A program made the position numbers and the translations under genes. From contig CAWFQL010000011.1 in assembly GCA_963817915.1 (NCBI GenBank), positions 128,001 through 192,000 on the forward strand: a stretch of 64,000 bases of DNA, in the 5' to 3' direction. Shown here piece after piece: positions 29,701 to 48,002 of this stretch. The notes under the pieces were generated by a model. The model was not told the DNA's origin and searched no databases. It was given only the letters and a program-made list of their open reading frames with translations. Numbering within the stretch: position 1 is the first letter of the stretch; each line of letters opens with the position of its first letter. Source of the DNA: an uncultured candidate division Zixibacteria bacterium (GTDB taxonomy: Bacteria > Zixibacteria > MSB-5A5 > UBA10806).

Positions 29701-32700
29701 TTATAGTCCCCAAATATCAGGAGCCCCATTCAGCGTTTCGGCATACCTGACCGCCTACGATTCCCATGGCAACATCAAACGCAATTATGATGCCTCCAGC
29801 GATACTGTCGTGATTACCGCCTCCAACGGCGGACAAATGACCAATAATATCCTGAATCAAAATGCGAGCTTCTTTAATGGTACTGCGAATCTCGTTGCTC
29901 TGAATACTACTTATTCCGGAGCTGGAGGGCCGGTAACATTCAATGCCCTATCTCAATCAGGCGCAACGGGTACATCAAACCCGGTCAATTTCAGCGCGCT
30001 TTATTGCAGCGGCCTTACGATTAATGAAACTGCCGTTTCTATCGGAGGAACGATGACCGGTTCAGTGAGTGTTCGCAATGAGGGCGGAGTCGTGGCCAAG
30101 ATAGATGATATAGGATTATACTCGGTTGGCGATCCATGGCAGGATGCGCTGGTATTCATACAACCACTGGATTCAATTGCGGCCGGCGCTGAATCGACTT
30201 ATACATTTTCGTATATTATTCCATTGGGCTTTTCGCCTTCGCATGTAAATATCGATATTCCTACTACGGCGACGATTATTGGCCGTTACGGATCATATAG
30301 TGTTTACGATACTCTTACCGGTTATCCGGATACTGTTCAAGTGCAGACTAATTCTCATCCCGGTTATGTGAACGGCTCTTTAAGCAGAGACACTTTGTCA
30401 ACGGGAGAATATTATTCACTTTCGCTCAGTCTTAGCAATTCCGGCGGCGCTGGGCTCGGCGTTTTGGATAGTTCGTATATTTATTTTTCCGATATTAGCA
30501 GCCACATATTCAGATCGAAAATTTCTACAGGCATATTTCTTCCACCGAACAGCCTGAATACTCCGGTGAATTTCGATTCGACCTTGGTCGTCGCATCATT
30601 TATTCCCGGTGATTATCAGGCCGCGATTCACTGCTTCGGCCGGGAAAATGGAATATTCGTAGTCGATACGATTGCCGTAGCAGATATAATTCATATTCAG
30701 TCTCGGGCAGTTCTCAGCTATCTTGAGAATACATTAAATCCCGATACACTCGTGGCAGGCCAGAATGCCATGCTGAGTGTTAGAGTCAGAAATAGCGGGA
30801 CATCCGAGTTTATTCTCGATAATCAATTTTCGCGCATCCATTTCGGCAATGCCCAAATGGAATTTATCGCCAATATCGATACCAGCGCCGGTCGCAGAAT
30901 AGATATTATAACCAGCGATACAACCCTGCATTTTGAACAAACCATATTATCACCGAATTTTAGCCTGGGTCAATTTACACCTGAGATTGCTATCAGGGGC
31001 AGCCAGAATGGCCGTCAAATTGAATTCAATATCGATACTAACCCGAATTCCATAAATGTCATTTCTCCATGCGCCGTTCGAATCGATTCAACTTATTCTA
31101 TTTCTCCCAACGCGCCATTTGTTAATGAGGGTCAGCAATGCTCTATACGAGTGGTAATTGAAAATACGGGAATGGAAGGGATCGATTCGGTTACTATTAA
31201 TCTTTTGCAATTCCCACGCGCGACATTTCAATCATCATTCCTGATTGAGCATCTCGATGGCGATAGCAGTATGGTCAGCCGCACATTCACTGGAGTTGCG
31301 GATTCGGTACCTAATTCAGGTCGGATTTTCAATTCAATTTTATCAGGAGGGGTAGGCAGTCGTTCCCGAATGATCGGCTTCGATTGCTCAACCATTGGAT
31401 AATACGGCGTTGTTCATGGTGGAATCCCCGGCGAATATCGTCATGCATCCCATAAATATCGTTGGCCCTGAATCCGCGCTTGATAGCATAATATCAATAA
31501 ACCAGCCGATATCGATTTCCGCTATGGCCACGAATTCGGGTCAGGCGGATATTATAGGCATTAAGAAGATGGTCTTGGATACGACCGGTTCCGGATTTAC
31601 GGTGTTGGATTCCGTAAACAGAGATTTCAATTTAGGCCAAACAGTTTCCTGGAATCTTAGAGCTCCAGGCAACGAAAGAGCTTCCTCGATTTTAAGTGTC
31701 GCTTTTCTGGATTCGCTTTTCGATAGAAATGATCTCCGATATGCAATAACACTTGGCTCTTCTTCCATAGAGTTTGTAGTCAATTCCGCTCCCACGATAT
31801 CGCATAGAGCTGAGATAGTCGGGCCGCCGGGCGCGACCGATAGTACTGTTTCCACTAATCAGGAATTTACAATTGCCGATTATTTTACTCCGGGCGGAGT
31901 ATATCAAAATTTGACCTGCAGTATTAATTTGCCATCGGGCTTTTCGACATCCGATTCGATTATCAAGCATCCTGATCCGGCCGAAAACTTCGTGCGCTGG
32001 AATGTTCGTGCTTCAACGAACGCCGGGCTCGATACCATATCAATATTAAGCTGGTTATACGGCGTCAATCTAAATGACTCTGTGGGAACCGCGCCCGAAA
32101 GAATACCTGTTACGGTTGAAAGATCGTCGTCTCTTAGGTTAACATCCAGGATTGCAGGGCCGGGCTCGGCATTAGACGGTATCTTGGAACCCGGATCGCA
32201 GCTCGAATATCGGGCGACAGTATTCAATGACGGTCAGGCAGCCGTATCAAGCGGCAGCCTTAATCTCAAATGCCCGATCTTGGGACTGGATTCTGTGCGG
32301 ACATTTAATGTCGGCGATAATATCGACTGGATTATCACGATGCCGGATACCGAAATAGCTGTACCGTTTCCGATTTGGACAAAAATTTCCAGTGTCCCGA
32401 CGGAAGAAAATATTCAAGCGCCTGCAATTACTGCCATAGATTCGTCTTCAATTACCGTGCTCGTAAAAAATCTATTACCCAGACTTATGATTACGAATTC
32501 CACCGGCTTTTCCGGCTCGCTTGTCAAAGGACAGACTCTGGATTATTTATCGCTTGAATCTGAAAAATGATGATAGAGGTGGGAGTTATACTATCGGAAT
32601 CGCATCCTTTTCATTTGATCTCAATTCAAATCCACCGGTCGATGCATCCCAACTATTCTCGTCATTAATCCTCTCCTCGGATTCAGGATCAGCTACTGCC

Positions 32701-33276
32701 AATATTGTCGATGGCAATAAAATTGTATTTGCGCTTCCCGATACGATTCACCTCTTGCCAGGCCGCTCGCTGCAATTCACAATGCAATTGGCCATTTCCC
32801 CCAATACGACTGTCGGCGATTTTTCCTTTTCGCTTTCAGAAAATGGAATCGCGGCTGTAATGATACAGCACGGCGGTCCGGCAACTCCGATTTCAGTCGT
32901 CAATTCCAGAGGAGATCCGTTTACCTGGAGCAGCAGCCCATCGGCTATATTTGAACAGAATTTTTCGGCTTCGGTCTCAAGTTATCCCAATCCATTCAAT
33001 CCAAGGGATGGCGGGGTTAAGATAGGATATTATTTAAGCCAAAATTCATCATTGGAAATAAAAATCTTTACTCTGTTCGGTGAATTGGTTTGGACTAAGA
33101 CTATCACACCTTCCGATCCTCAGGGACAAATGGGTATGCGCACTGAAGATACCGCGGTTCGCTGGGATGGCAAAAATGATTCGGGCCATGAAATCCGTTC
33201 TGGGGTCTATATCTGCATTATCAAAAACCTGACATCAGGCGAGGAGAAAAAATTAAAAATCGCTGTCGTAAAATAA
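26729..33276 (+). CDS. Giant (~2180 aa) repeat-rich surface protein with T9SS-like CTD; frameshifts near 31377 and 32554
   Basis: Three overlapping ORFs join by single-base deletions; signal peptide, Ig-like repeats, SYPNPF..FTLFGELV..WDGKND..SGVY. Confidence 0.75.
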
Positions 33277-35112
33277 TCGCGTTATCCGCGGTTTTTGTAA
33301 TTTCCTGTTTCGGCCTCGCGCTTTCGCAGGGCGATGCCGGTCGCGAATCGCCGTTTATTTTCGGCGCTGGCGGCCGTGGCATGGGGATGGGCCGGGCGTT
33401 TGTGGCCTTGAACGGCGATGCGTCGGCGCCATTCTGGAATCCCGGAGCCGCCGCGACTATCGATCGCGCCGGATTCATGGTATTTCACACATCTTTGTTC
33501 ATGGGGACTAATTACGACTGTTTTTCATTGTCTTATCCTTTTGAGACTCATGGAGTGGTCTCAATCTTTGCCGGACGACTCTCGACCGGCGATATTCAAG
33601 CACGGGACGAATTCAATCGCCTGATCAGGTCGTTTACATCTGCGGAAAATCAATTTGGGATCGGCTTCGGGCGAAATATAGCATACGGTTTTTATGCGGG
33701 AATGTCGCTCAAGGCCGCTTCGATGGAAATAAATTCAATCTCCGGATATGGTTTCGGTGCCGATGTCGGTTTGCAATTCAAACCTCATTATGTAAAAGGA
33801 TTGACTGCCGGGCTGAGCATAAACGATATCATAAAGCCCTCAATAAAATTATCTTCGGTAAGCGATCGATACCAGACTGTCTCGCGTTTCGGGCTATCAT
33901 ATACGCACGGCATTTTGAAAAATATGGAATCAACATTGGCATTACAGTATGAGACGGTCAAAGACCGAAAATCAATAACACGGGCCGGAATTGAAATGGC
34001 ATTTTATGATCATTATTTTCTGCGCGCCGGCATAGATGATTCCAGACCGACATTTGGCGCCGGCATAGATTATAATGATTTTGTGGTTCTGGATTATGCT
34101 TATGAGAATATCGAATTCTTCGGCTCCAGTCACCGAATTTCGCTGGCATTTTCTTTCGGCAAATCAATTGCCCGTTCGCGCGAGGAAGCCCGAGCTCGGA
34201 TTATACAGGACGAAAAAGAAACCTGGCAAAAAGAAGTCGAAAGCCAAAGAAAAATGGAATATAGGTCTTTTCTCGATAATGCTGATAGCCTTCGCCGGGC
34301 CGGCAAATTGGAGGACGCGCTTGGATATTACGAGCGAGCCCTGGCCATTGATAGCACTTCTCGACGTGCCAAAGCCTCCAGCGATAGCGTGATGAGCGAT
34401 ATAATTGCTCAAAGCATTTCAGTTACCCAGGACAAAAAACGGGAAGAGCTTATTTCCAATAGAATCGAGCTGGCGTTGCGGTCGTTGCGAGCCGGTCAGT
34501 ACAATGATGCGATTGCTCAATATCAAATGGTACTGGAGATCGAACCCAGCAATCCCACAGTTGTTGACCTGCTTCAATCGGCACGACAGATGCTCCAGAC
34601 TGAGATTAATAGCGTAAAATCGAAAGCTCAAGCTTCTCAGTCAGCAGGCGATTATGCCAATGCACTTGCTGGAATGGAAGAGACTTAACGATATTGCTCC
34701 GGCTGATAGCGAGGCATTGAGGGGGATAAATATCGCCAAAGGCCAATTGAAAGTCGATGGTCTTGTGGCCACAGCTGTCAACTCGATGAGAAATGGTGAA
34801 TATGCGAATGCGCTTACTTATCTTCAACAAGCGCAGTCACTTAGGCCGAACGATAAGTCTATCGGTTCACTGCTTGCGGAGGCCAAGGCAAAATCCGCGC
34901 CGCCCACGACGCTAAATGATATAAAGGCATCAAAAGAAAATTGGTCTATATATCTTAACGGTCTGGAACAGTATCAATCAGGAAAGTATTCTAAAGCCCT
35001 GGAAAATTGGGAATCGTTGCGAGAATTCTATCCCAATAATCCCGAGCTTGAGAAAAACATCAGCCAGGCCAAGAGCCGTCTTCAAACCGAGGGCGGAGCC
35101 CCCAAAGATTAG
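33252..35112 (+). CDS. PorV/PorQ-family beta-barrel fused to coiled coil and TPRs; frameshift near 34667; start uncertain
   Basis: GAGGRGMGMGRAFVA..DASAPFWNPG, LDYAY..HRISL, then TPRs; signal peptide lies upstream of the ATG at 33381. Confidence 0.8.
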
Positions 35113-35167
35113 CCTTTACAGATTCTTTTTGCTGAATTACTATTTGATGTCTGGAGCGCCTTGATTT

Positions 35168-38113
35168 ATGGGAAAAAAACCAATTAAAGAAGTATTCATG
35201 AGCTTCGCTGCCGAGGAATCCCAAATGGAGGATATCCGAAGCAGCATTCGCGATGTATTGGCCGATTCCGACCTTACAACGAAAGACGTTAATAGTGTTC
35301 TTCTGGCTCTTGAGGAAGGCTGTACCAATGTTATTCGTCATGCATATCTCTATGGCCCTGGCACCATTCGAATTAAGGTAAAGCTTTACCCTGGCAAGGT
35401 TCAATTTTCGATATTTGATCGTGGCCGGGCGTTCGACTTTGACCATTCCGATGTGCCTAATTTGGATCGCTATGTCAAAACGGGACGCAAAGGCGGTTTG
35501 GGGCTTTATCTTATTCGCAAGATGATGGATTCTGTCGATTATCATTCCCGCGATGGCGAAAATGAACTTCGAATGGAAAAAATATCCGATAAAACCAGCT
35601 CGCGATCGATTCGCATTCCAGGTTTCTCAATCCGTGTAAAATTCGCCTTATGGGCATCGCTTGTGGTATTTATGATTGTTGCGGGTGTCTTTTACTATTT
35701 TGATAATCGCGGCCGAAAAAATGCCAGAGAACGATTCTTCGATGGCTCCACGAACGCGATGGAAACATTCGTATCGGATATTGGGGATAAAATCTTATTG
35801 AGGGATTTGGATCTTAATAAATCCGCGGCGTCCTGGCTCGACGCCAACAAAAATCTGTTTTCGTTTATCGTGGTGACAGATACCGGAGGGATTATTATTG
35901 CCGATCCGGAAAGCCCTTCGCTTTTCCTTTCTGCATTTCGCGGAATTGACAGCGGAGATTATAATACTGATATCGCGGTGAAAGACAGCCTGAACAACAA
36001 AATCTTTTATTACAAAAGAGCAGCCAGGATTAATGATCAAACTGTCGGCTACGCTTATTTCGGATTAAGAGAAAGTCCTTTGAAATCCGAATTATCTCAA
36101 ACGCGTACCGGCCTGCTGTTGATTGCATTTGCGGGCCTGTTTGTAGGTTTCATGGCAGTCTATGCCTTGTCCAACTACTTTGTGAAGCCTATTCAAAAAC
36201 TGACCGAAGGCGTACTTAGATTTGGCGAGGGTAATTTAGATCAATCACTGCCGGTGGATGGTTCGGATGAATTTTCGGAGATTGCCCGGGCCTTTAATGA
36301 AATCACAGGCAAATTCAAAAAGGCGCAAGAGAATGTTGTCGAGCAGGAGCGATTGCAAAAAGAAATGCAGGTCGCTCAGGAAATTCAGCATACACTGCTT
36401 CCGCGCACTTTCCCCGATATCGAAGGTTATGATATTGCTACAGTTTACAGGGCCGCCAAAGATGTAGGCGGTGATTATTTTGATTTCGTCAGAATCGATG
36501 AAAACACGCTCGGAATTATCGTCGCCGATGTGTCCGGAAAGGGTATTCCCGGTTCATTGGTTATGACGATGATTCGAACCGCTTTGAGAATGGAAGCGAG
36601 AGGCAATTTCTCCCCCATAGATATTCTTTCGAGAGTAAATAATTTCGTTGCCGATGATGTCAAGAAGGGCATGTTCATTACCATATTTTTCATAATGCTC
36701 AATTCTGAGAGTCGGGCGATATCGTTCTCATCGGCTGGCCACAATCCCATGATTCTTTATCGCAAAGAATCGAATTCTTGCTATTTCCTGAATCCTCGCG
36801 GAATGCCGCTGGGGATAAGTCTCCCTGACGGTGTCAGTTTCGAGAAATCCTTGGAATCAGATAAAGTACAATTGAAAAAAGATGATATGTTGATTGTCTA
36901 TACCGATGGCATAACCGAAGCCATGAACAAGCTCGGTGAGCAATTCGGCAATGATAGGCTGATTCAATTCATAAGAGACAATTCAGATCTTCATCCCAAG
37001 GATTTTGCCAGCAAGCTGGATTTCGAAATCAATAAGTTTACTGGCGGCGCGCCTCAAAATGATGATATCACGTTAGTCGTTATTAAAGAAAAATTGATGC
37101 TCGACGAGGTAATATTCCAGAAACGAAGACGGCTTATAGAGATGGTAGAAAAAGAAGGCGTTCCTCTTGAAGAAGCCTGCACTCAAATGGGAGTATCGAC
37201 CTCGACCTATTATAAATATCTTCGCAGATGGCAAAAATTAGGCGATATGGGTTTATTGAATAAGAAGCTTCGCGCCGAGACCAATATAAAGCAAATTTCA
37301 ACCGAAGTCCGCAAGGAAATCTTGAAGATTGTCAGGGAAGATCCCGAGCTCGGAGGCAAAAGAATTCTTCAAAAGCTTTCGGAATTGGGAATTCAGAATA
37401 TTGATATTCGAGGGCTGTATCTTGAACTCGTAAGAATGCGCCTTAATACCAAAAAACTCAGATTAGAATATGTCGAGCGGGTTGGCGGTTCCACTCCTGA
37501 AATTCGGGCTGAACTCGAAAAAGAAATCCTCAAAGAGGTCAGCAAGAAAGAAGAATTCGATAGAGTTGAGTATATCGAAACTATTAAAAAGAATCTTGAT
37601 CAGAAAAAAGAACAGCTCGGAACGTCGGCCAGGGGGCTTGTCAGCAAGCTTCAGCAAATGGAGCCTGTTCTTGGTGATGCCAGCCTCTATGGTGAAATCG
37701 CCGCTGAACTTGGCAAACTGGGCGAGGGGGAGGATATCGCCAAATTATTTGAGAATCTAATCCTCAAAATGGCGTATAAGAATAAGGGTATCGAGAAATC
37801 ATCAGAGACAGAAATTCCTGCGCCAGCGACAATAAAGCCCATGCCCGATTTGTCCGCAGAAACACCCGTAACGGCAGGCATCGTTTCGGAAGAGGACTCA
37901 ATACCGAAAATAGCACCCAACGATAGTAATTCGGAAATAGCAATCAAGCCGGAAACCGTTGCTCCAATTCAGCCGTTACCCGAGCAGGAAAATACCCCAA
38001 TCGACGTAATTGAAAATGCCAGCAAGCCTCAAATTGATGAAGAAAAAAAGGATGAAGAATTGGATTGGGATGATTATGGTAAGAAGCTTGTTGAAAAATT
38101 TAAGAAAGAATGA
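35168..38113 (+). CDS. Membrane fusion: RsbW-like HATPase + 2TM sensor + HAMP + SpoIIE PP2C phosphatase + transposase-like HTH domains
   Basis: EEGCTNVIRHAY, DRG, GGLGL; VGGDYFD, DVSGKG, SAGH, YTDGITE, DDIT; GVSTSTYYKYLRRW. Confidence 0.9.
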   Translation: MGKKPIKEVFMSFAAEESQMEDIRSSIRDVLADSDLTTKDVNSVLLALEEGCTNVIRHAYLYGPGTIRIKVKLYPGKVQFSIFDRGRAFDFDHSDVPNLDRYVKTGRKGGLGLYLIRKMMDSVDYHSRDGENELRMEKISDKTSSRSIRIPGFSIRVKFALWASLVVFMIVAGVFYYFDNRGRKNARERFFDGSTNAMETFVSDIGDKILLRDLDLNKSAASWLDANKNLFSFIVVTDTGGIIIADPESPSLFLSAFRGIDSGDYNTDIAVKDSLNNKIFYYKRAARINDQTVGYAYFGLRESPLKSELSQTRTGLLLIAFAGLFVGFMAVYALSNYFVKPIQKLTEGVLRFGEGNLDQSLPVDGSDEFSEIARAFNEITGKFKKAQENVVEQERLQKEMQVAQEIQHTLLPRTFPDIEGYDIATVYRAAKDVGGDYFDFVRIDENTLGIIVADVSGKGIPGSLVMTMIRTALRMEARGNFSPIDILSRVNNFVADDVKKGMFITIFFIMLNSESRAISFSSAGHNPMILYRKESNSCYFLNPRGMPLGISLPDGVSFEKSLESDKVQLKKDDMLIVYTDGITEAMNKLGEQFGNDRLIQFIRDNSDLHPKDFASKLDFEINKFTGGAPQNDDITLVVIKEKLMLDEVIFQKRRRLIEMVEKEGVPLEEACTQMGVSTSTYYKYLRRWQKLGDMGLLNKKLRAETNIKQISTEVRKEILKIVREDPELGGKRILQKLSELGIQNIDIRGLYLELVRMRLNTKKLRLEYVERVGGSTPEIRAELEKEILKEVSKKEEFDRVEYIETIKKNLDQKKEQLGTSARGLVSKLQQMEPVLGDASLYGEIAAELGKLGEGEDIAKLFENLILKMAYKNKGIEKSSETEIPAPATIKPMPDLSAETPVTAGIVSEEDSIPKIAPNDSNSEIAIKPETVAPIQPLPEQENTPIDVIENASKPQIDEEKKDEELDWDDYGKKLVEKFKKE

Positions 38114-38856
38114 TTAAACTCGCTATCCTGACATCCAAAGGCGGGACAGGGAAGACTACTACCGCTATTAACCTTGGACATGGTCTGGCTTTATCCGGGA
38201 AGAAGGTGTTGTTAGTCGATTGCGATCCGCAGGGGTCAACATCGGCGGCTTTTGGTGTTGATGGCGAAAGGGGACTTTCGAATTTATTAACGGATGGTAA
38301 AGTCGATATTTATCAGGTTAGACCAAGGCTCTTTTTATTGCCGTCGGGCAAGAAACGTTTGGCTGACCTTGAGATGACATTAGCCACTATGGACGATAAA
38401 GAATACAGAATCAGCAACGCCCTGGGAAGGCTTTCGGGAAGCGATTGGGTTATTTTAGATTGCTCTCCGTCAATAAATATAATAAATTTAAATGCTTTAG
38501 GGTTTGCGGAACATCTCCTGATTCCAGCATCACTGGATTTTTTTTCGCTGGAGGGAGTTAAATCCACGATGGAATTGGCTAAAGAGATTACGGCAAAAGG
38601 AAAGGGAATGCTTGAGATTCTCGGAGTATTGCCGACATTTTATGATAGAAGGACTATTATTTCGAGGCTGGCTTTAGATGAACTGCGGAATAGCTACGGC
38701 CCGCTCGTATTTAATACTGAAATAAGATTGAATGCCGAGATAAAGAAATCGCAATGGTACAGGCAAACCGTTTTTGAATATGCCCCATTTTCTCATGGAG
38801 CTTATGATTATTATAAATTATCGAAAGAGGTCCAGGAAAGATTGGAGACGAAATAA
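38110..38856 (+). CDS. ParA/Soj-family ATPase (orphan)
   Basis: KGGTGKTT, DCDPQG, LDCSPS, GVLPTFYD. Confidence 0.92.
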   Translation: MIKLAILTSKGGTGKTTTAINLGHGLALSGKKVLLVDCDPQGSTSAAFGVDGERGLSNLLTDGKVDIYQVRPRLFLLPSGKKRLADLEMTLATMDDKEYRISNALGRLSGSDWVILDCSPSINIINLNALGFAEHLLIPASLDFFSLEGVKSTMELAKEITAKGKGMLEILGVLPTFYDRRTIISRLALDELRNSYGPLVFNTEIRLNAEIKKSQWYRQTVFEYAPFSHGAYDYYKLSKEVQERLETK

Positions 38857-38858
38857 AT

Positions 38859-39581
38859 ATGAGTGATATAAAAATATCTTTAGACAGCGCGGGTCCCAAG
38901 GGAGAAATTTCAGTAGTCAGGGTCGACGGGGTCATTGATACCATGACTTCCAGCGACCTCGAAAAAGTAATGAATTCTCTTCTTGAGAGGGGCAAATATT
39001 ATATCGTAATCGATCTCGGCGGGGTAGATTATATATCATCAGCGGGATGGGGTATATTTATTTCGAATATAAGAGAAATCCGCCAGCATTCTGGCGATAT
39101 CAAGCTGGCTCGTATGATTCCCAATGTGTACGAGATATTTGAGCTGTTGGAATTCGATAGCATTCTTAAAGCTTTTGACAGCGTCGAAAAGGCCAAATCG
39201 GATTTTAGCTTCATCAAAAGAAATGGCGCCGACTCCGGCGAAAGAGTGCCCGTAGAGGTTGCGGTTGCGGCGCTGGATTCCGCGGAACCTACTCAGAAGA
39301 TTAAAGAAGTGGCGAATCCGTCAACGAATCTGCAAGATGCTCCCAAACAGCTTTCGCAGTTAGAAAAGAAATCAACCGCTCCCGGGCTTCAGGAAATAGT
39401 TGTTGAGATGGTCATAAAGGACCCCTTCTTTTCGATATCAGAAATTAAAACCGAAATCGCCAGAAAATATCCGACCGCCCAATCTGGTTGGTGGCAGATT
39501 TGGAATGTTTTGCGTCAAAATCGCCTCTTAAGCAAGAAAAGCCGTTTTCGCCTGTCACGTTTTAAGAGCGGAGTTCGATAA
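38859..39581 (+). CDS. STAS anti-sigma-factor antagonist with C-terminal HTH-like domain
   Basis: VDYISSAGWG phosphoacceptor motif, linker, then DPFFSISEI...WNVLRQNRLLSKKSR. Confidence 0.88.
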   Translation: MSDIKISLDSAGPKGEISVVRVDGVIDTMTSSDLEKVMNSLLERGKYYIVIDLGGVDYISSAGWGIFISNIREIRQHSGDIKLARMIPNVYEIFELLEFDSILKAFDSVEKAKSDFSFIKRNGADSGERVPVEVAVAALDSAEPTQKIKEVANPSTNLQDAPKQLSQLEKKSTAPGLQEIVVEMVIKDPFFSISEIKTEIARKYPTAQSGWWQIWNVLRQNRLLSKKSRFRLSRFKSGVR

Positions 39582-39584
39582 TTA

Positions 39585-41429
39585 ATGATCAATAAGCCAA
39601 AGGCGTGGCCCTTTATAGTAATTTCATTGATGCTGGCCGGCATAGTAATAGCATCAGGGTTTTTCTTGAAAAACCTTAATGCAAGAATATCTATTTATCT
39701 GGCAGGAATATTGATATTGGGGTATTTGATCTATTCATATATCCGTGCCTCCTGGAAGGCCGCCATCATCGAAAAATTAATCAATACAGATTCAAATGAT
39801 AAGGATACCCTGGCCAATTCATTGCTTTCGGAGATAATCGCATCAGGTATTCAGAAAAAATCGATTCAGCAAGCGGCATCGGAAATCATAAAATCAAAAT
39901 TTGGCATCGATAAATTCGTAATTTATTTTCGCGATGACGATAAATTAATTCCTCGAATATATTCAAATGTTAATATTAAAAATCTGGGATATCTGAACAC
40001 CGATAAAATTAAAAAATACCTGGGTTCAAATATGGATTCCGGAATAATATTTAAGAATGACACCTTATTTCACGCCGCTGCAAAAAATAATGATAATGAT
40101 GAATTCGAATCCTATAATATTTTTGCTTTTTCCTGGGGCAAAGGCGGATTAATTCTGATAATTTTCGATGATACCATTGGGCATTTTACCGAAATATTAA
40201 AAAATGCCGACATGAACAAAATGCTTTGGCCGGGTTTGGATTATACATTAAGAGTCCATTTCGATCTCAAGGAAAATGCCGCCGATCTAAAGCAAAATCG
40301 AATAGAATTGGGTCGCGCGAAGAAAGAATTGATTGAATTGAATAAAGAACTCAACAAGAAGATGCTCGATGTCCAGTCGTTCGTCAAGATATCAAACGAT
40401 CTTTATTCACTATTCAATGAAGATCAGCTATTCCCTACATTGAAAAACACGATTAGCAATCAACTTGGGGCGACTAAAGTCGAAATCTTAAAGCCATCCG
40501 GCGACGGGACTTTCAAATTATCCGCCGAAGCTACGGGCAATTCCAATTCGGGATTTGAACTTATATTAGACAGTGAATCGGCTCTATTGAAATTATTGCA
40601 AAAAAGCGCCAAACCACTTTTAATGCCGCTGGTAGGCTCAGGATTAAGCCCCAAAGAACCATTTCTCGACGCGGCAGCCCAGGCCGGTTTTCAGATAGCC
40701 TCGCCAATAAAGGTCAGCGGCCGAATTGAATGCATTATTTTAGTGGGCGAAAAGAAGGATAAAGGACAATATCTAAACCAGGATATAGATTCATTTTATA
40801 GTATCAGTAATATTGCCTCGCTGGCATTGGAAAATATAAAACAGTATTCAACAATAGAGAAACTTTCATATACTGACAGCATGACGGGTATTTATAACTA
40901 TCGCTATTTCTATAAACGTCTCAGCGAGGAAATTCTGAGAGCTCAAAGATACAACCGTGAAATCGCATTGGTAATCATGGATATCGATAATTTCAAAACT
41001 TTTAATGATAATTTTGGCCATCAGGCCGGAGATATGGTATTAAAACAATTGTCGGAGCTGATAACTCGGACGATAAGGTCAATTGATGTTGTCAGCCGCT
41101 ATGGAGGCGAGGAATTCTGTATTATCATGCCGGATACGGGGACTGCCAATTGCAGTATTTTTATCGAACGTTTAAGAGCCGAAATTGCGGGTTTTAAATT
41201 TGAATCGGAGGCGTCCCATATTAATTCAATAACAGTTTCAGTCGGGGGAGCGGTCTACCCATATCACGGGACTAATCCCGACCGATTGATATATTGTTCT
41301 GATATGGCATTATTGAAAGCAAAATCGTCGGGCAGGAACCGCGCGTTGATGTATAGCGTAAATAGTGATGATAAAGGGGATTTAATGTCTGGGAGGTCAG
41401 ATGTCGCTAAAAGGGAATATACAGAATAG
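39585..41429 (+). CDS. Membrane GAF-like/GGDEF diguanylate cyclase
   Basis: 2 TM helices, TDSMTG, DIDNFK, RSID I-site, RYGGEEF. Confidence 0.93.
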   Translation: MINKPKAWPFIVISLMLAGIVIASGFFLKNLNARISIYLAGILILGYLIYSYIRASWKAAIIEKLINTDSNDKDTLANSLLSEIIASGIQKKSIQQAASEIIKSKFGIDKFVIYFRDDDKLIPRIYSNVNIKNLGYLNTDKIKKYLGSNMDSGIIFKNDTLFHAAAKNNDNDEFESYNIFAFSWGKGGLILIIFDDTIGHFTEILKNADMNKMLWPGLDYTLRVHFDLKENAADLKQNRIELGRAKKELIELNKELNKKMLDVQSFVKISNDLYSLFNEDQLFPTLKNTISNQLGATKVEILKPSGDGTFKLSAEATGNSNSGFELILDSESALLKLLQKSAKPLLMPLVGSGLSPKEPFLDAAAQAGFQIASPIKVSGRIECIILVGEKKDKGQYLNQDIDSFYSISNIASLALENIKQYSTIEKLSYTDSMTGIYNYRYFYKRLSEEILRAQRYNREIALVIMDIDNFKTFNDNFGHQAGDMVLKQLSELITRTIRSIDVVSRYGGEEFCIIMPDTGTANCSIFIERLRAEIAGFKFESEASHINSITVSVGGAVYPYHGTNPDRLIYCSDMALLKAKSSGRNRALMYSVNSDDKGDLMSGRSDVAKREYTE

Positions 41430-42429
41430 TCTTATGGTTAGCCCAAAAATTAATTGTACTTCTCGAATTGTGCTAATATTTGCTATTTTGTTCATTTCGG
41501 CTAACGCGCAGGATAAGGATACTTATATTATTGGTCCGACGGACAGATTAGCCATATCATTCTGGCAGCAGCCCGATTTAAATACAACAGTTCGAGTCAG
41601 TGATAATGGAAATATAACCTTGCCGGTAATAGGGGAGATCAGGGCTGCGGGACTGACCACCGCGGAATTATCAAAAAAAATTGTAGAGCAAATGGTGTTT
41701 TATAATAGTCCTGTATCACAGGCGACAATAGCAGTCACTGAGTATAATTCCCGGACAGTGGTTGTCACCGGGCAGGTATTGACCCCCGGAAGCCATAGCT
41801 ATGAAAAAATACCTGATATCTGGAAAGTCATTCTCGATTCTGGAGGGCCCACATCTCAGGCGAATCTTTCCGGTGTCACGATTGTACGGAAGGATGGCGA
41901 AAAGACTGATGTAATTGATGTCGATTTGTATAAAATAATCAAAGATGGTGATTTATCGAAGGCTCCTCCACTCAAACCGGGTGATTTGGTCAATATTCCT
42001 GTTTCACCATATGGGTCGGCGGTTGAGCTTGCCGGAACGCCTCAAGCTGAACGGAAAAATATCTATTTTGTTTTTGGAAGGGTTACAACTCCCGGGGCCA
42101 GGGACCTTCAAGAGGGTATCGATATAATGGATGCCATCACGCTGGCCGGTGGACCTCTTGCGGATGCTGATTTGAGAAATATCAGAGTAATTATGAAAGA
42201 CGCCGGGCCGTCGAATATAGTCAAAATTGATCTCGAAAATTATATTGATAAGGGAACTCCTTCTCGTTTTTTGCTTCGTGCTGAAGACACCGTGGTTATT
42301 CCACTGCGTAGGGACGGCACTTTCACAAATATTACGAATAGGCTTGCTACGGTTGTACCAATCATTACCGCCATAGGGACATTGATATTATTATACTATA
42401 ATATTCAAGAGATAAATAGGAGACGTTAG
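41401..42429 (+). CDS. Polysaccharide export protein (OPX/Wza-like, SLBB domains)
   Basis: YIIGPTDRL, GNITLPVIG..AAGLT, two SLBB repeats. Confidence 0.88.
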   Translation: MSLKGNIQNSLMVSPKINCTSRIVLIFAILFISANAQDKDTYIIGPTDRLAISFWQQPDLNTTVRVSDNGNITLPVIGEIRAAGLTTAELSKKIVEQMVFYNSPVSQATIAVTEYNSRTVVVTGQVLTPGSHSYEKIPDIWKVILDSGGPTSQANLSGVTIVRKDGEKTDVIDVDLYKIIKDGDLSKAPPLKPGDLVNIPVSPYGSAVELAGTPQAERKNIYFVFGRVTTPGARDLQEGIDIMDAITLAGGPLADADLRNIRVIMKDAGPSNIVKIDLENYIDKGTPSRFLLRAEDTVVIPLRRDGTFTNITNRLATVVPIITAIGTLILLYYNIQEINRRR

Positions 42430-42432
42430 AGC

Positions 42433-44016
42433 TTGAGTAACGATAAAAAGCAAATAAATCTTAAAGAATACTGGGGCATTCTTACGCGTCGCAAGACGCT
42501 CCTAATATTGCCTATTTTGATAATACCATTAGTCTCAATTGCGGTAAGCTATTTTTTAAAGCCTCAATATGTTTCATCTGTTACCATTTTGACCGGAGAA
42601 ACCAATATTTTGCCCCCTTCAGTCGAGAGAGAATTGCAAAGCGGACAAAGATTCGATTGGACTGAGCCGCAGGAACGGCTGATTTCGATTACGAGTAAGA
42701 TCACATCAACTAAGTATTTGAGAAGATTGATTTCAGTTCTTGATATTAAAGCTACACCTGAGATAATGAAGGTCGTGACTGAAACCAAGACCGCATTCCC
42801 GGATATTTCTGAAGCTGATCTTGCCGAAAATATTATGGCTGATCAGCTTAGAAATAATATAACTGTCAATTTACGCTCGAATAACGTTTTTGAAATTCTT
42901 TTTGCGTCCGCCGACCCAATTATGGCGCAGAAGCTTGCCAAATCACTCGCCGACATTTTTATTGAAGAGAATTTAGCACAGGATATGGCGGGGATTAGGT
43001 CCAATATCAGCTTTTCGGAAGAGCAATTAGCAGTTTATCACGAGAAGCTTAAAGATGCCGAGGACAAGTTGAAGGACTATCGTGAAGGCATTCTGGCGAC
43101 ATCTGTCGGGGAAGATACTACTGGCGCAAGCCTCCGGATGATAATTTCCGCTGCAGAAGCGCTTGATTTGGAAATACGAAAAGAAGAGGAATCTCAGGAT
43201 AGTGTGCGATTATATCTGGTAAACAATAAGGTCGATTTGGCAAATCTGGTGTTGCCGGTAAACCTGCAAAACGAAAAATCCAGGCTCATTAATCTCTTAT
43301 CGACTCTAACTGAATTGTTGACTAGAAATAGCTGGCGAGACCCCAAAGTAGTCAATTTAAACGAAGAAGCCAAAAATCTGCATGATCTCATTACACGGGA
43401 AATCGGCATTTTTACTGAAAGTCAATATGCAGATAAATCTTCTCAATTTAAAGATAAAATATCTGAATATCTAACTGGTTCGGTATCGCTCGAATATAGC
43501 AGGGCAAAGAAAGAGGCTCTCGATAAAAGCGTAGGCAAGATCAAATCGCGGATAACCAAAAATCCTGATACCGAAGTAACTATTCAGAGGCTGCAAAGCG
43601 AGGTCAATACTTATCGTGATTTGTACAATACATTCGTGATGCATTCGCAGTACGGAGCGATAGACCAATCCGCCAAGAAGGTCGAAGCTGAAGCCAAATT
43701 TATGATAATAAAGCCAGCCTCGCTCCCATTAACGCCCGAATCACCCAACAGACAGAAACTGGCATTAATGGGAATAGTTCTGGCGTTAGCAATTGGAGTG
43801 GGAGCAATCATTATACTGGAATTGCTCGATAACTCATTCAAGAAGATCGATGATGCTGAAAATTATTTGAATATTGCCGTAATAGGGACTATTCCAAAAA
43901 TCCTTCTTCCCTATTATTCGCCGATTAAAAAAAGAATTCCAATCCTAATCGGAACCGGCATCAGTTTTATGCTTATTATATTAATACTTTATTTAAATTT
44001 AAGGAAAAGCGGGTAA
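42433..44016 (+). CDS. Polysaccharide co-polymerase (Wzz/GumC-type membrane module)
   Basis: INLKEYWGIL, N- and C-terminal TM helices, coiled coil, PESPNR, LDNSFK. Confidence 0.88.
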   Translation: MSNDKKQINLKEYWGILTRRKTLLILPILIIPLVSIAVSYFLKPQYVSSVTILTGETNILPPSVERELQSGQRFDWTEPQERLISITSKITSTKYLRRLISVLDIKATPEIMKVVTETKTAFPDISEADLAENIMADQLRNNITVNLRSNNVFEILFASADPIMAQKLAKSLADIFIEENLAQDMAGIRSNISFSEEQLAVYHEKLKDAEDKLKDYREGILATSVGEDTTGASLRMIISAAEALDLEIRKEEESQDSVRLYLVNNKVDLANLVLPVNLQNEKSRLINLLSTLTELLTRNSWRDPKVVNLNEEAKNLHDLITREIGIFTESQYADKSSQFKDKISEYLTGSVSLEYSRAKKEALDKSVGKIKSRITKNPDTEVTIQRLQSEVNTYRDLYNTFVMHSQYGAIDQSAKKVEAEAKFMIIKPASLPLTPESPNRQKLALMGIVLALAIGVGAIIILELLDNSFKKIDDAENYLNIAVIGTIPKILLPYYSPIKKRIPILIGTGISFMLIILILYLNLRKSG

Positions 44017-44020
44017 ATAA

Positions 44021-45139
44021 GTGGTTTTCAACGGTTATACAGACAAATTCAAAAGACTGGGAAGGGAGTATCTTTTTCAGACTTCTATAGATAATAGTCG
44101 CAAACAAGTAGTAAGTTCGTTGTTTCATGCGGGGCAGCTGCTGAATAGTATCGCTACTCCATTTCAGGATGCTTCGCAGGGAGAGAAGTTGTTTGAAAAG
44201 GCGCTAAGTTTTCATAAGCAAAATCTTGGGGATCTGGATTCATTGCTTGGCTTGGCCGAACGGATGCGAAGTTTAGAAAAGCCGGATATAATCGAAAAGC
44301 TCGGGAAATCATTATGTGCAAGACAGCTTTATGATGAAGGTTTGGAACTGCTGCTTCTGGCTTCTCAGAAATACCCCGAAAGTCCCGGGCTGCATCATGT
44401 TCTCGGCAAATTATACCTGGCCAAGGGACAGGTCAATGATGCCGAAACTGAATTTGGACGCGCCGTTGATTTGGCGCCCGATTTCCCGGACTATAGAAAC
44501 GCCCTTGGAATCGCCTATTTAAAATCAAACAAGGCTGTGGCCGCAATCTCCGAATTCAAAAAAGCCGTGACGCTTAATATCTATTTTGATAAGGCTTATT
44601 TTAATCTGGGTTTGGGGTATATAGCCAATGGCATCATTAGGGAAGATTTCAATCTGGCCAAAAATCTCGTCCAAAATAGCATGGATGCTCTCCAAAAAGC
44701 CGCGTTGTTTAATCCGGCTTATAATACGGATAAATATACCGAGGGCCTTGAATTTCTTAATGAAGGCGAATATGAAAAGGCCTATTCAACGTTGTCGAAA
44801 GTTGCCGAGGAACATACATCTCGTTCCGCGGAAGAGCATTTGGTCGAATTATATCTTCGATATATTCATAACGAGACCGGAATGTCCGAAGAGGGGATTA
44901 ACAACTTTATTGAACGGATTAAAGACTTATTGAAATTAAATCCAGGATATGCCGATTTGCATAATGAATTGGGCATGGCATATACTATCCTGTGTAAATT
45001 TATGAATGATAAGGCAATTTATCATTTTCAGGAGGCGCTCAAAATTAATCCCAATTTTACAAAGGCTGTAAAAAATCTAAAATTATCGAAAAATGACTTG
45101 AAGGGATTCGAAATTCTTTTGGAAGCGATTTTAAAATGA
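44021..45139 (+). CDS. TPR-repeat protein
   Basis: PDFPDYRNALG, PGYADLHNELG repeats. Confidence 0.85.
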   Translation: MVFNGYTDKFKRLGREYLFQTSIDNSRKQVVSSLFHAGQLLNSIATPFQDASQGEKLFEKALSFHKQNLGDLDSLLGLAERMRSLEKPDIIEKLGKSLCARQLYDEGLELLLLASQKYPESPGLHHVLGKLYLAKGQVNDAETEFGRAVDLAPDFPDYRNALGIAYLKSNKAVAAISEFKKAVTLNIYFDKAYFNLGLGYIANGIIREDFNLAKNLVQNSMDALQKAALFNPAYNTDKYTEGLEFLNEGEYEKAYSTLSKVAEEHTSRSAEEHLVELYLRYIHNETGMSEEGINNFIERIKDLLKLNPGYADLHNELGMAYTILCKFMNDKAIYHFQEALKINPNFTKAVKNLKLSKNDLKGFEILLEAILK

Positions 45140-45864
45140 AAAATAACGGCAAATTTCCGCCATTAACGGCTGTCTTCGATAAGGAATCATCGGTTGCGAC
45201 TGAATTCAGAAGGCTTTATTCCAATTTAAAATCCCGCAAGGGAACTGAAAATTTAAAAACGATAATGATTACTTCCGCGATAATTGGCGAGGGCAAATCC
45301 CTTACAAGTTCCCTGCTATCAATGACAATGGCGGATCTGACCAAAGCCAAAATTGGATTGGTTGATTTCGATTTAAGACGTCCCAAATTGAATATTTATT
45401 TTAATTTGCCTATAGAAAATGGCGTCTCCGATGTCCTTGGGGGCAAAATCGGCATAAAGGAAATTTGCCGCAAGACTACTATACCAAATCTGACAGTGCT
45501 TTGCGCGGGGAAACCAAATAATAATCCAAGCGAAATTATCGATAGAGCCGATATACCTGCATTTTTTCAGGAGCTAAAATTCTATTTCGATTACATTGTG
45601 ATCGATTCGCCCCCTGTAATTCCCGTTTCGGATCCATTGCTGATCGCTGATCAGGTTGATGGCGTGTTATTAGTTGTAAGGGCCGGAACAACCCAGCGCG
45701 AGGTAGTCGGCAGGGCCGTAAATCTTCTGAAGAATGCCAAAGTCAATCTTCTTGGCGCCGTATTGAATGACTGCGAAAGCGTTTTGCCCTATTATTACAA
45801 AGAAAGCTACTACGGATATCGTTATTATCACAAAGATAATAAAAAATCCCAAAAGACCGCATAA
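45136..45864 (+). CDS. BY-kinase (CpsD/CapB family tyrosine kinase)
   Basis: EFRRL, TS..GEGKS, DFDLRRP, IDSPP, C-terminal Tyr cluster YYYKESYYGYRYY. Confidence 0.93.
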   Translation: MKNNGKFPPLTAVFDKESSVATEFRRLYSNLKSRKGTENLKTIMITSAIIGEGKSLTSSLLSMTMADLTKAKIGLVDFDLRRPKLNIYFNLPIENGVSDVLGGKIGIKEICRKTTIPNLTVLCAGKPNNNPSEIIDRADIPAFFQELKFYFDYIVIDSPPVIPVSDPLLIADQVDGVLLVVRAGTTQREVVGRAVNLLKNAKVNLLGAVLNDCESVLPYYYKESYYGYRYYHKDNKKSQKTA

Positions 45865-46083
45865 CCCCGACCTTAATGCATTTTTGTTGCATTGTATTGC
45901 ATAGTGGGTTGATTTAGTCCATTTTAGTTACCCCATATTTTAGCCTAATATTAATTTATGTTCTTATTTCACGCCGCCATTGTGGTAATATAACTTATTA
46001 CACTGTTTATATTTATAAGACAATGAGCATTAAAATTAATATCAATAAAATTAACTAAAGTTGAATCTCTCAAATCCCATTTG

Positions 46084-46099
46084 TGGCAGATATTTTGCA
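46084..46099 (+). promoter_or_regulatory. Sigma54 promoter
   Basis: TGGCAGATATTTTGCA (GG-N10-GC), AT-rich region and TGCA motifs upstream. Confidence 0.7.
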
Positions 46100-46140
46100 T
46101 TAGGTCATATCAACTTAGAGGATAGAGGGAGAAGACTGTT

Positions 46141-47040
46141 ATGCGTTATCAAAATCCAATTCCAAGCCCCATGGCACACTACTGGGAAGAAGAGGCAATT
46201 AATGCCTGGGGAACTTGGTTAAGGTTACGTAAGGGCGGTCGCCGCGTCTTAAATTTTGTGCTTAGCGAAGTAGTTCTTGCTAATATTTATCTGCTTTCCG
46301 GCTTGATCGCAAACTCTGGCCTGCTCTTGGAAGCAAGAGCAAAGTCCGCAGTTTTATCGAATCATATAAACATCGGAGCGATTCTTAAAAGATCTGTGGA
46401 TATTATCGGAGCGGCATTTGGGCTGGTATTGACATTGCCTATCTGGATAATAGTACCGATCGCCATTAAACTGGATAGTTGCGGATCAGTTTTTTATACT
46501 CAGGAAAGAGTTGGGATTAACAGACGCAGAGGCAATCGCAGAAAAATTGCTGTCGATGGCGAAGAAAATAGAGTTTCGGTCGAAAGAAGAAAGAAATTCA
46601 GCTACGGTAGATCATTTACGATATTAAAATTCCGAACTATGTACATCAACGCAGAATCGATTTCAGGTCCGAAATGGGCATGCAAGAATGATCCCAGAGT
46701 GACAAAATTGGGACGAATTATGAGAGCCACCAGGATTGATGAAATTCCCCAATTATTGAATGTTTTAATGGGAGATATGAGCCTGGTTGGGCCGCGGCCG
46801 GAAAGACCGTTCTTTGTAGACAAGCTTCGTCAAAGTATCGATGAGTATGCCTGCAGATTCGAGGTAAAGCCGGGAATCACAGGGCTTGCTCAGGTCGAAC
46901 ATAAATATGACGAGAGTCTCGAGGATGTAAGCAAGAAAATTAAGTATGATCTTAATTATATTCGAAATTGGACTTTATTCCAGGATATGAAGATTATCGT
47001 TAAGACCATATCGGTGGTTTTAACCGCCCGAGGGATGTAG
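46141..47040 (+). CDS. Priming polyprenyl-phosphate sugar transferase (Bac_transf)
   Basis: KRSVDI, KFRTM, DPRVT, IDEIPQL.NV..GDMSLVGPRPE, KPGITGLAQ. Confidence 0.93.
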   Translation: MRYQNPIPSPMAHYWEEEAINAWGTWLRLRKGGRRVLNFVLSEVVLANIYLLSGLIANSGLLLEARAKSAVLSNHINIGAILKRSVDIIGAAFGLVLTLPIWIIVPIAIKLDSCGSVFYTQERVGINRRRGNRRKIAVDGEENRVSVERRKKFSYGRSFTILKFRTMYINAESISGPKWACKNDPRVTKLGRIMRATRIDEIPQLLNVLMGDMSLVGPRPERPFFVDKLRQSIDEYACRFEVKPGITGLAQVEHKYDESLEDVSKKIKYDLNYIRNWTLFQDMKIIVKTISVVLTARGM

Positions 47041-47062
47041 AATTAATAAGGTTAATGGTACC

Positions 47063-47092
47063 GACGGGGATTGCAATCCCCGTCTTTTTTTT
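47063..47092 (+). terminator. Rho-independent terminator
   Basis: Palindrome GACGGGGATTGCAATCCCCGTC followed by T8. Confidence 0.9.
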
Positions 47093-47276
47093 GCATAATT
47101 TTAATTATGTTCCAGTCGATATCATAATTAGGATGAGATCGACTATTTCCCCCAAAATTATATTTTGAGTTTTGAATATGATTATGGTATAAGTAATAGG
47201 TAATTATGGCCAGGAAGATAAATATTTAACAGATCACCATCCAAGGCCATTTAGATTTCGTGGATGGTGAGATAAA

Positions 47277-48002
47277 ATGCTTAATTCGGAGACTACAATG
47301 ATAAAGAGAATTTTCATAATGATTGTATTGGCTCTATTGATTTTTCAAACAAGCGTCTGGGCCCAGGACAAGGATAATATCATCTTAACTACCAGACCGG
47401 CCGGAGCTACTATTTACTTGAATGGCGAATATGAGGTTGTAGCCAATGCGCCCGCCAGACTGCCGTCAAGCATCGCGGGGCGCTATAATGTCAAAATAAC
47501 GCGGCCGGGTTATGAGACCTGGAAAGGCATCCTTACTTTTGTCCCAGGCAGTGCCAATAATATGACTATCGATCTGAGTAGGAAGACAAGATTCAAATCA
47601 TGCCTGCGTTCGATTTTTATTCCGGGATGGGGCCAGATCTATTCAGGGCAGACCCTGAAGGGAAGCGCTATTACCGGAGCGGCGATTCTATCCGCTGCCT
47701 CATTTTATTTCGCGGATAAACGCTATCAAAAGAAAAAAACAGATTTCGATATCGCCATGTCAGAATATAGAGTGGCGACTTCAGCTGAAGATCAAATCAG
47801 GCTCAAAGTTAATTTGGATAGTCGGCAGCGTTCGGCATACCAGGCTGAGACCGATAGACGCACGGCCATGGGAGTTGCGGCCGCTGTTTGGGCATACAAT
47901 ATAATAGACGCTTTAATTTTCTTTCCTGACAATGAATTATTTTATCCTTCGGCTGTTGCTTTAAATGATGGTGCCATGTTGAAATTTACGATGGAATTTT
48001 AG
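47277..48002 (+). CDS. PEGA + DUF5683-like protein (start may be 47298)
   Basis: TRPAGATIYLNG..P, RSIFIPGWGQIY, WAYNIIDA. Confidence 0.75.
   Translation: MLNSETTMIKRIFIMIVLALLIFQTSVWAQDKDNIILTTRPAGATIYLNGEYEVVANAPARLPSSIAGRYNVKITRPGYETWKGILTFVPGSANNMTIDLSRKTRFKSCLRSIFIPGWGQIYSGQTLKGSAITGAAILSAASFYFADKRYQKKKTDFDIAMSEYRVATSAEDQIRLKVNLDSRQRSAYQAETDRRTAMGVAAAVWAYNIIDALIFFPDNELFYPSAVALNDGAMLKFTMEF

Follow-up and report, generated by a model that had tools for sequence, protein, structure and literature searches.

Partner switches are usually viewed as soluble regulators of sigma factors. The one considered here is encoded at 35168-38113 on the plus strand, as are all features of the locus described below, in a 64,000-nucleotide window, the whole stretch of DNA that was analysed, which covers positions 128,001 to 192,000 of contig CAWFQL010000011.1 (assembly GCA_963817915.1) from an uncultured Zixibacteria bacterium. 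According to the open reading frame (ORF) call, translation and domain matches, this single ORF encodes a 981-residue protein, P0001, that fuses kinase, sensor, phosphatase and helix-turn-helix (HTH) parts. The closest characterised relative of P0001 in logic is SypE of Vibrio fischeri. As described in PMC10120452, SypE joins an N-terminal RsbW-type kinase, a central REC regulator and a C-terminal PP2C phosphatase in one chain and controls SypA, a serine-phosphorylated single-domain STAS protein that serves as the downstream component instead of a sigma factor and belongs to the syp polysaccharide locus. Where SypE, in that description, has REC at its centre, P0001 has a membrane sensor of the order transmembrane (TM)-Cache-TM-HAMP; it further adds an HTH pair, a tail and a ParA partner, and its locus has a STAS protein with a basic extension and an adjacent GGDEF cyclase.

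Two systems of Pseudomonas aeruginosa supply further points of comparison. In PMC5085249, HsbR is a fused kinase/PP2C protein acting on the STAS protein HsbA, and phosphorylated HsbA binds the diguanylate cyclase HsbD, with consequences for biofilm formation and motility (the HptB-HsbR-HsbA-HsbD pathway). The P0001 locus resembles this system in its fused kinase/PP2C, its predicted STAS substrate and its predicted diguanylate cyclase output, whereas HsbR, as portrayed there, is soluble, REC-driven and without an HTH or ParA, and FlgM is a second target to which HsbA switches. SiaABCD, as described in PMC8457831, resembles the locus in that SiaA, a membrane HAMP-PP2C protein, is opposed by a kinase and that a small switch protein controlled by phosphorylation, SiaC, binds the stalk of the biofilm cyclase SiaD and activates it; the Sia kinase differs in being a separate protein. 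SiaA is also the best NCBIfam match of P0001 residues 318-638 (NF038263, 73.6 against a cut-off of 700), and the cyclase of the locus matches SiaD (NF038266) at 155.4 against a cut-off of 290, both falling far short of the equivalog level.

The original prediction, made from the sequence alone, saw in P0001 a one-polypeptide partner switch that contacts DNA directly, an architecture it did not recognise as characterised. Fusion of kinase and phosphatase is not new, being already present in SypE and HsbR (PMC10120452 and PMC5085249). For the HTH/ParA addition no described counterpart was found in the literature searched. Four features are new and went undescribed in the full-text literature searched: a direct membrane sensor placed in this domain order, an HTH of transposase type, a ParA-linked peptide accompanied by an orphan ParA and, in the STAS protein, a basic helical extension. 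No description of a PP2C-HTH fusion or of a partner-switch-linked ParA was found in the full-text literature outside subscription journals. Taken together, the locus can be read as a SypE/HsbR-like switch acting on cyclic di-GMP (c-di-GMP) and exopolysaccharide (EPS), supplemented by a ParB-like adaptor, and we give this overall reading about an even chance of being right.

The switch core itself is well defined. The RsbW/SpoIIAB-type serine kinase domain (residues 13-138; 35204-35581) matches the Pfam family HATPase_c_2 (PF13581) over all 127 profile positions (1-127) with an E-value of 4.2e-27 and 95 bits against a cut-off of 27.4, and residues N54, D84, G86 and G109-G112, which belong to its N-, G1- and G2-boxes, are invariant across 18 orthologs. 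Hydrophobic stretches in the translation at about residues 159-178 and 315-337 lie on either side of a variable sensor, giving TM1, an extracytoplasmic domain and TM2 at residues ~159-337 (35642-36178); in some orthologs the sensor position matches sCache_3_2, which points to a Cache-like fold. A HAMP domain (residues 334-378; 36167-36301; PF00672, 47 bits) precedes the PP2C/SpoIIE phosphatase domain (residues 445-640; 36500-37087), which matches PF07228 at 165 bits against a cut-off of 25 (E 2.1e-48) and whose acidic residues D436, D439, D454, D580, D632 and D633 are invariant in orthologs. Pfam returned no Response_reg match for a REC domain in P0001, and the TM-sensor-TM-HAMP unit takes that central position. 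Across 18 long-form orthologs, to which all mean pairwise identities by domain refer, conservation is highest in the PP2C (70%) and kinase (62%) domains, and the sensor, at 30%, is the least conserved folded part. No second copy of P0001 is present in its own genome.

Pfam matches and invariant residues thus agree with the order of kinase, two TM helices, HAMP and SpoIIE that had been read from the sequence, and with the intactness of both catalytic domains. The profile search proposed at that stage (HATPase_c_2, HAMP, SpoIIE, HTH_28/29/32) was run and matched kinase, HAMP, SpoIIE and HTH_23, with HTH_32 and HTH_28 below their cut-offs. On the basis of intact domains and a conserved cognate pair, P0001 is very probably a membrane-bound, bifunctional partner switch of the SypE/HsbR type. 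Its extracytoplasmic Cache-like domain would signal through HAMP and shift the balance between kinase and PP2C, and these two activities would act in opposite directions on Ser61 of a STAS protein encoded two genes downstream.

This partner protein (240 aa; 38859-39581; PF01740, 62.9 bits) consists of a STAS domain, a disordered linker and a basic four-helix C-terminal extension. Its model superposes on SpoIIAA (1tid_B) with Z 19.0 and a root-mean-square deviation of 1.8 over 116 residues and on RsbV with Z 15.9; SiaC, a DUF1987 protein and not a Pfam STAS protein as here, gives Z 8.0 (6kko_C). Residues S60 and S61 are invariant (11 orthologs for S61), and S61 aligns with the serine replaced by Ala in 1tid_B, which we take to be phospho-Ser58. 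The extension itself (residues 176-240; window 39384-39578) has an isoelectric point (pI) of 11, a predicted local distance difference test (pLDDT) score of ~90 and a conserved G-W-W...L-L-S-K-K-S-R-F-R signature, and is present in Zixibacteria carrying either the short, HTH-less or the long, HTH-bearing form of the switch. It had no usable match in the ESM Atlas, and fold searches with the whole STAS model were filled by the STAS domain.

Directly behind the STAS gene lies a gene for a membrane diguanylate cyclase (614 aa; 39585-41429; GGDEF, E 1.7e-45) with N-terminal hydrophobic helices and an RSID sequence (RxxD site) followed, after five residues, by GGEEF. It is succeeded by EPS export and chain-length genes (41401-45864) for Wza-like, Wzz-like, TPR and BY-kinase-like P-loop proteins, identified by Poly_export/SLBB, Wzz/GNVR, TPR and ParA/AAA_31 matches. 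The gene order switch-(ParA)-STAS-GGDEF-Wza was found in all five long-form Zixibacteria loci examined, and STAS and/or GGDEF genes follow the switch in all nine short-form loci examined. Because this STAS-GGDEF-Wza order is conserved and two precedents exist, a c-di-GMP/EPS output is the most likely one in Zixibacteria. The adjacent membrane GGDEF cyclase would be controlled by the STAS protein in one of its phospho-states, and c-di-GMP from the cyclase would control the Wza/Wzz/BY-kinase EPS genes. Synteny and analogy with HsbA-HsbD and SiaC-SiaD tilt the balance modestly towards this chain of control.

The original prediction had also stated that no sigma factor is adjacent, and indeed no sigma-70 factor was found among the 49 scanned of the 53 window ORFs of at least 150 aa. 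A missing sigma factor does not make direct contact of the switch with DNA the only possible output, since STAS and GGDEF genes lie immediately downstream and STAS-to-cyclase signalling has precedents in HsbA-HsbD and SiaC-SiaD (PMC8457831).

Behind the phosphatase domain, P0001 carries a bipartite transposase-type HTH module (residues 645-771; 37100-37480), recognised by HTH_23, an IS481 profile and the AlphaFold2 (AF2) model. HTH_23 matches residues 651-693 at 30.9 bits against a Pfam cut-off of 24.6; HTH_32 (residues 680-741) and HTH_28 are the families that score under theirs. The IS481 transposase profile NF033577 of NCBIfam matches residues 652-765 with 59.8 bits and E 2.9e-16 (cut-off 224). 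Since this match covers profile positions 1-109 of 284, only the N-terminal DNA-binding part of IS481 is present; the match stops at position 109, and Pfam found no rve/DDE family in P0001 at E <= 0.01. These results uphold the earlier description of a transposase-type HTH pair without a DDE domain, and the coordinates given for it, ~37121-37471 (residues 652-768), agree with the profile matches.

In the AF2 model, the module folds into two helical subdomains that both exceed a pLDDT of 90. The module is better conserved than the sensor (49% and 30% mean pairwise identity, respectively), its pI is 9.7, and basic residues R47, R62, R75, R118, R125 and R131 (alignment A4 numbering) are invariant or nearly so. 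Only its own gene was matched in the 3.33-Mb, 94% complete assembly at E <= 0.01, which makes the module single-copy, and 119 of the 120 best listed homologs, down to 46% identity, carry HTH Pfam families, the exception being a 569-aa partial sequence. We predict that the module binds DNA, a prediction that we would accept and doubt in equal measure.

ParA/Soj acts with ParB/Spo0J in partition, and orphan ParA ATPases position cargo. A ParA/Soj-type ATPase of 248 aa (38110-38856; AAA_31/CbiA, with a KGGTGKT Walker A motif) is encoded immediately downstream of P0001, its start overlapping the switch-gene stop (ATGA), and a stop/start overlap is found in both of the lineages compared below. It aligns over its full length with Thermus Soj (1wcv, E 1.8e-48). 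Identification as BcsQ or MinD, which Pfam and NCBIfam matches had raised, was rejected, as the search against solved structures favours Soj/ParA. The two ParB_N genes of the genome lie on other contigs, each beside another ParA homolog, and the ATPase is therefore an orphan. The arrangement resembles ParA/ParB in placing a Soj-type deviant Walker A ATPase beside an HTH protein with a short terminal, Lys/Arg-containing peptide. P0001 differs from ParB in that Pfam finds no ParB family in it, ParB_N included, its HTH is of transposase type, its peptide is C-terminal, the whole is part of an integral membrane signalling enzyme and no parS is known.

The original prediction did not describe the downstream genes, among which the adjacent orphan ATPase is the best correlate of the C-terminal extension. 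A ParA-like gene lies directly downstream in all 21 distinct long-form Zixibacteria loci and also, after three fused STAS domains, in 19 loci of Krumholzibacteriota/Latescibacterota type with at least 3 kb of downstream sequence; it was found in none of the nine short-form loci. In this sample, HTH without ParA exists, and ParA without HTH never does.

The correlation extends to the last residues of the protein. After the HTH module comes a helical region (residues 776-875; 37493-37792), in which AF2 confidence falls along a long helix and mean pairwise identity is 25%, and then a disordered linker (residues 876-960; 37793-38047) with a pI of 4.05, 18 D+E against 6 K+R, pLDDT below 50, 17% identity and a length that varies among orthologs, in keeping with the acidic Pro-rich tail noted at the outset. 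A C-terminal helix and motif follow (residues 962-978; 38051-38101; helix pLDDT 70-84 in the AF2 model), reading D-W-D-D-Y-G-K-K-L in P0001 and G-W-x-x-Y-G-x-K-L in Krumholzibacteriota. The pattern [WF]xx[YL]xx[KR][LI] occurs within the last 45 residues of 40 of the 42 ParA-linked complete ORFs and of none of the 14 ParA-less ones, one locus having been set aside for too little downstream DNA; the exceptions are L014, with I for the first hydrophobic residue, and L069, with an aberrant tail. Elsewhere the pattern gave only 3 matches in 24,124 internal residues. The motif is kept despite wholly different intervening sequence, a helical/disordered tail in Zixibacteria and three STAS domains in Krumholzibacteriota, and its co-occurrence with ParA spans these two phylum-level lineages.

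A complex prediction for two ATPase copies, ATP and P0001 residues 641-981 gave a score of 0.60, against 0.02 for the best of three controls. This value falls in the weak band of a calibration in which 116 of 157 solved complexes, but also 2 of 215 mismatches, passed the mark. Agreement between runs extends to 41% of contacts or more, and the partner has a pLDDT of 56 or higher. Strict co-occurrence and this weak model-based signal together suggest that the C-terminal peptide probably engages ParA.

We next consider how widely the HTH-bearing form occurs. A kinase-TM-HAMP-PP2C homolog is present in all 201 Zixibacteria genomes sampled. Among the matches listed, the match continues past residue 770 in at least 39 genomes (families f1, f2, f5, f8, f18 and f14) and ends near residue 640 in most of the others (families f3, f4, f6, f10, f11 and more); the HTH-less short forms of f3, f4, f6, f10 and f11 are about 655-735 aa long. 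Both forms follow the same two TPR genes and are therefore positional orthologs. No separate HTH gene was found by tblastn (E <= 1e-5) within the fetched flanks of nine short-form loci. In a HAMP-PP2C tree of 77 rows, obtained by a quick search and rooted only at its midpoint, a branch with a support (SH-aLRT) of 99 sets the f3, f4 and f11 short forms apart from all HTH-bearing rows.

With a Krumholzibacteriota protein as query, 43 loci were recovered from Krumholzibacteriia, Latescibacterota, KSB1 and metagenome-assembled genomes (MAGs) labelled Bacteroidota or Cytophagia. In L045:9001-13368 and about 20 similar loci (L044-L070) from Krumholzibacteriota/Latescibacterota MAGs, the whole switch forms one chain of ~1450 aa in the order kinase, TM-HAMP, PP2C, HTH and three STAS domains, and the genes behind it encode a ParA-like protein, a TPR protein and two single STAS proteins. 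The architecture survey that had been proposed thus finds HTH-bearing forms in several phyla and HTH-less forms in Zixibacteria. Because many orthologs lack it, the HTH appears from its distribution to be an accessory module and not the core output of the switch. Two individual orthologs depart from the common plan: L011 (G153:C28) has an in-frame TAA inside the match, and in L069 an Arg-rich tail replaces the C-terminal motif. Either may reflect a sequencing error or a decaying copy.

An HTH-only profile matched 3909 cluster representatives at E <= 0.001. Among the best 60 of these 3909 relatives, at E <= 1e-8, no DDE domain was found, and three groups could be distinguished: kinase-HAMP-PP2C-HTH proteins, some with a C-terminal TPR or three fused STAS domains; GT2 glycosyltransferases that begin with the module, single or doubled; and short tandem-HTH proteins. 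Named members belong to Krumholzibacteriota and Calditrichia. The module shares with the IS481 transposase N-terminus its two-part HTH, yet it lacks DDE/rve, is single-copy and holds a fixed syntenic position across phyla, and the proteins closest to it in sequence belong to signalling or are GT2 fusions rather than transposases. The HTH-GT2 proteins (P0150, P0161, P0163-P0168, P0174, P0177, P0178 and P0180-P0182) are cellulose-synthase-like and reach 2949 aa. As judged from sequence, these fusions are a second, independent tie of the module to polysaccharide synthesis; with P0168 as query, none was found in five HTH-switch genomes of other phyla.

On the reading that we put forward, the C-terminal extension would be an old accessory module that gives the switch a ParB of its own. 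With its basic bipartite HTH it would touch DNA or the nucleoid, and with its terminal [WF]xx[YL]xx[KR][LI] peptide it would bind the orphan Soj-type ATPase, whose gene is translationally coupled to that of the switch. Through both contacts the signalling complex would depend on the nucleoid for its position, partitioning or activity. In its full form, in which a transposase-derived HTH and a ParA peptide make the switch a ParB-like cargo adaptor, with the nucleoid and ParA positioning, partitioning or gating the c-di-GMP/EPS complex through a module common to several FCB-group phyla, this proposal is tentative and we consider it possible but doubtful.

Several points weigh against the overall reading. 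That kinase and phosphatase act on the STAS protein and that the HTH binds DNA is, at every step, inferred from sequence. In fold comparisons of the HTH module, Foldseek against the PDB returned nothing at E <= 0.001 (best E 0.21), and the top rows, with E-values of 0.2-2, were TnsB, Mu transposase and the paired domains of Pax proteins; the VIA wide fold search gave ArgR/AhrC, DeoR, TrpR, TnsB and IstA at Z 5.3-6.3, inside the common background range. These searches point to HTH/winged-helix DNA-binding domains and transposase N-termini with non-significant scores. A comparison of the C-terminal module sequence with PDB chains yielded no meaningful match, the best being CDNF (E 0.0031, in the helical tail), with the Sleeping Beauty HTH at E 0.45. 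A scan of 32500-47400 for operator-like repeats yielded only short, low-identity pairs at chance level, a result that is no evidence against a binding site. A ParA-like gene is absent from the HTH-bearing loci of f14, from eight Bacteroidota-labelled, the KSB1 and the Cytophagia-labelled loci, and from L065 and L083; since the HTH occurs without it, HTH function does not depend on ParA. The motif pattern was composed after the sequences had been seen, and the orthologs are related, which reduces the co-occurrence to perhaps two or three independent lineages. In the calibration of the complex prediction, scores at or below 0.60 comprise 18 of the 157 solved complexes together with both passing mismatches. 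The prediction differed from its calibration in using its own alignments and a riding ATP, its output contained no interface, and the score may owe something to a likeness with ParA-partner complexes already solved. Finally, no GGDEF gene was found near one Krumholzibacteriota locus, and the cyclase output may for this reason be lineage-specific.

Two alternatives share the conserved module and assign it a different role. The first, which is that of the original prediction, takes the HTH pair to be a sequence-specific, membrane-tethered transcription factor that regulates genes such as the EPS operon directly, with ParA incidental. The basic and conserved character of the pair, its best profile match to a DNA-binding transposase N-terminus, the existence of HTH-bearing forms without ParA and the lack of a sigma factor among the window ORFs scanned all suit this view. 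Yet the genes immediately downstream supply a complete STAS/GGDEF output path, most of the Zixibacteria families sampled have positional orthologs that do without the HTH, no repeated or palindromic candidate operator is evident in 32500-47400, and the tracking of C-terminal motif and ParA across phyla is left unexplained; we regard direct gene regulation as unlikely.

We attach the same low probability to a second alternative, in which the pair has lost nucleic-acid binding and serves as a protein-protein scaffold, docking for instance the STAS protein, the cyclase or EPS-synthesis proteins, while the C-terminal peptide makes a separate contact with ParA or the membrane. Domains closely related to the module are found between PP2C and fused STAS domains, and tandem copies stand N-terminal on GT2 glycosyltransferases, which are membrane EPS enzymes and not DNA regulators; together with the lack of a DDE domain in the best 60 relatives and the weak fold matches to DNA-binding domains, this favours a scaffold. 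The conserved basic residues on predicted helices, the pI of 9.7 and the fact that all matching sequence profiles are DNA-binding HTH families speak for a retained nucleic-acid contact and against a scaffold.

That HTH and tail are a recent, decaying and functionless IS481-type remnant is extremely improbable: the best profile match is to an IS481 transposase N-terminus and the segment is missing from many orthologs, but the frame is open and conserved in the best listed homologs and in other phyla, the HTH is more conserved than the sensor, and neither another genome copy nor a DDE remnant was found. A recent IS481 scar was rejected on these grounds, and comparison of orthologs, which the original prediction had named as the means of recognising one, likewise speaks against it, although many short forms lack the HTH.

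Upstream of P0001 lie two genes for TPR proteins (33381-35112), recognised by Pfam and by tblastn synteny, that are syntenic with the switch in Zixibacteria, Krumholzibacteriota, Latescibacterota and KSB1 loci. Weak matches relate the first to TraF_2 and the second to BamD/YfiO-like proteins, and the two may be envelope partners of the sensor. Beyond the EPS export genes, a Bac_transf sugar transferase gene (46141-47040) was identified by Pfam. A low-molecular-weight phosphotyrosine phosphatase gene at 597-1100 lies 34 kb upstream of the BY-kinase-like gene (45136-45864) and could encode its Wzb-type partner. At 16052-17432, a sigma-54-dependent response regulator (REC, AAA+, HTH_8) is split across two overlapping frames, and its Sigma54_activat profile match breaks at position ~96-99, which suggests a frameshift or an assembly error.

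Taken together, the locus presents, in phyla of the FCB group that are uncultured, a complete membrane-sensor partner switch whose likely outputs are c-di-GMP and polysaccharide export, with an addition that has no described counterpart in the searchable literature, a transposase-type HTH and a peptide co-evolving with an orphan ParA. If the extension does work as a built-in ParB-like adaptor, it would represent a new way in which envelope signalling or EPS secretion is tied to the nucleoid or to positioning in space, and a clear example, from bacteria, of signalling that has taken over the DNA-binding domain of a transposase. The predicted contact between peptide and ParA is open to testing with purified proteins, which matters since the organisms are uncultured.

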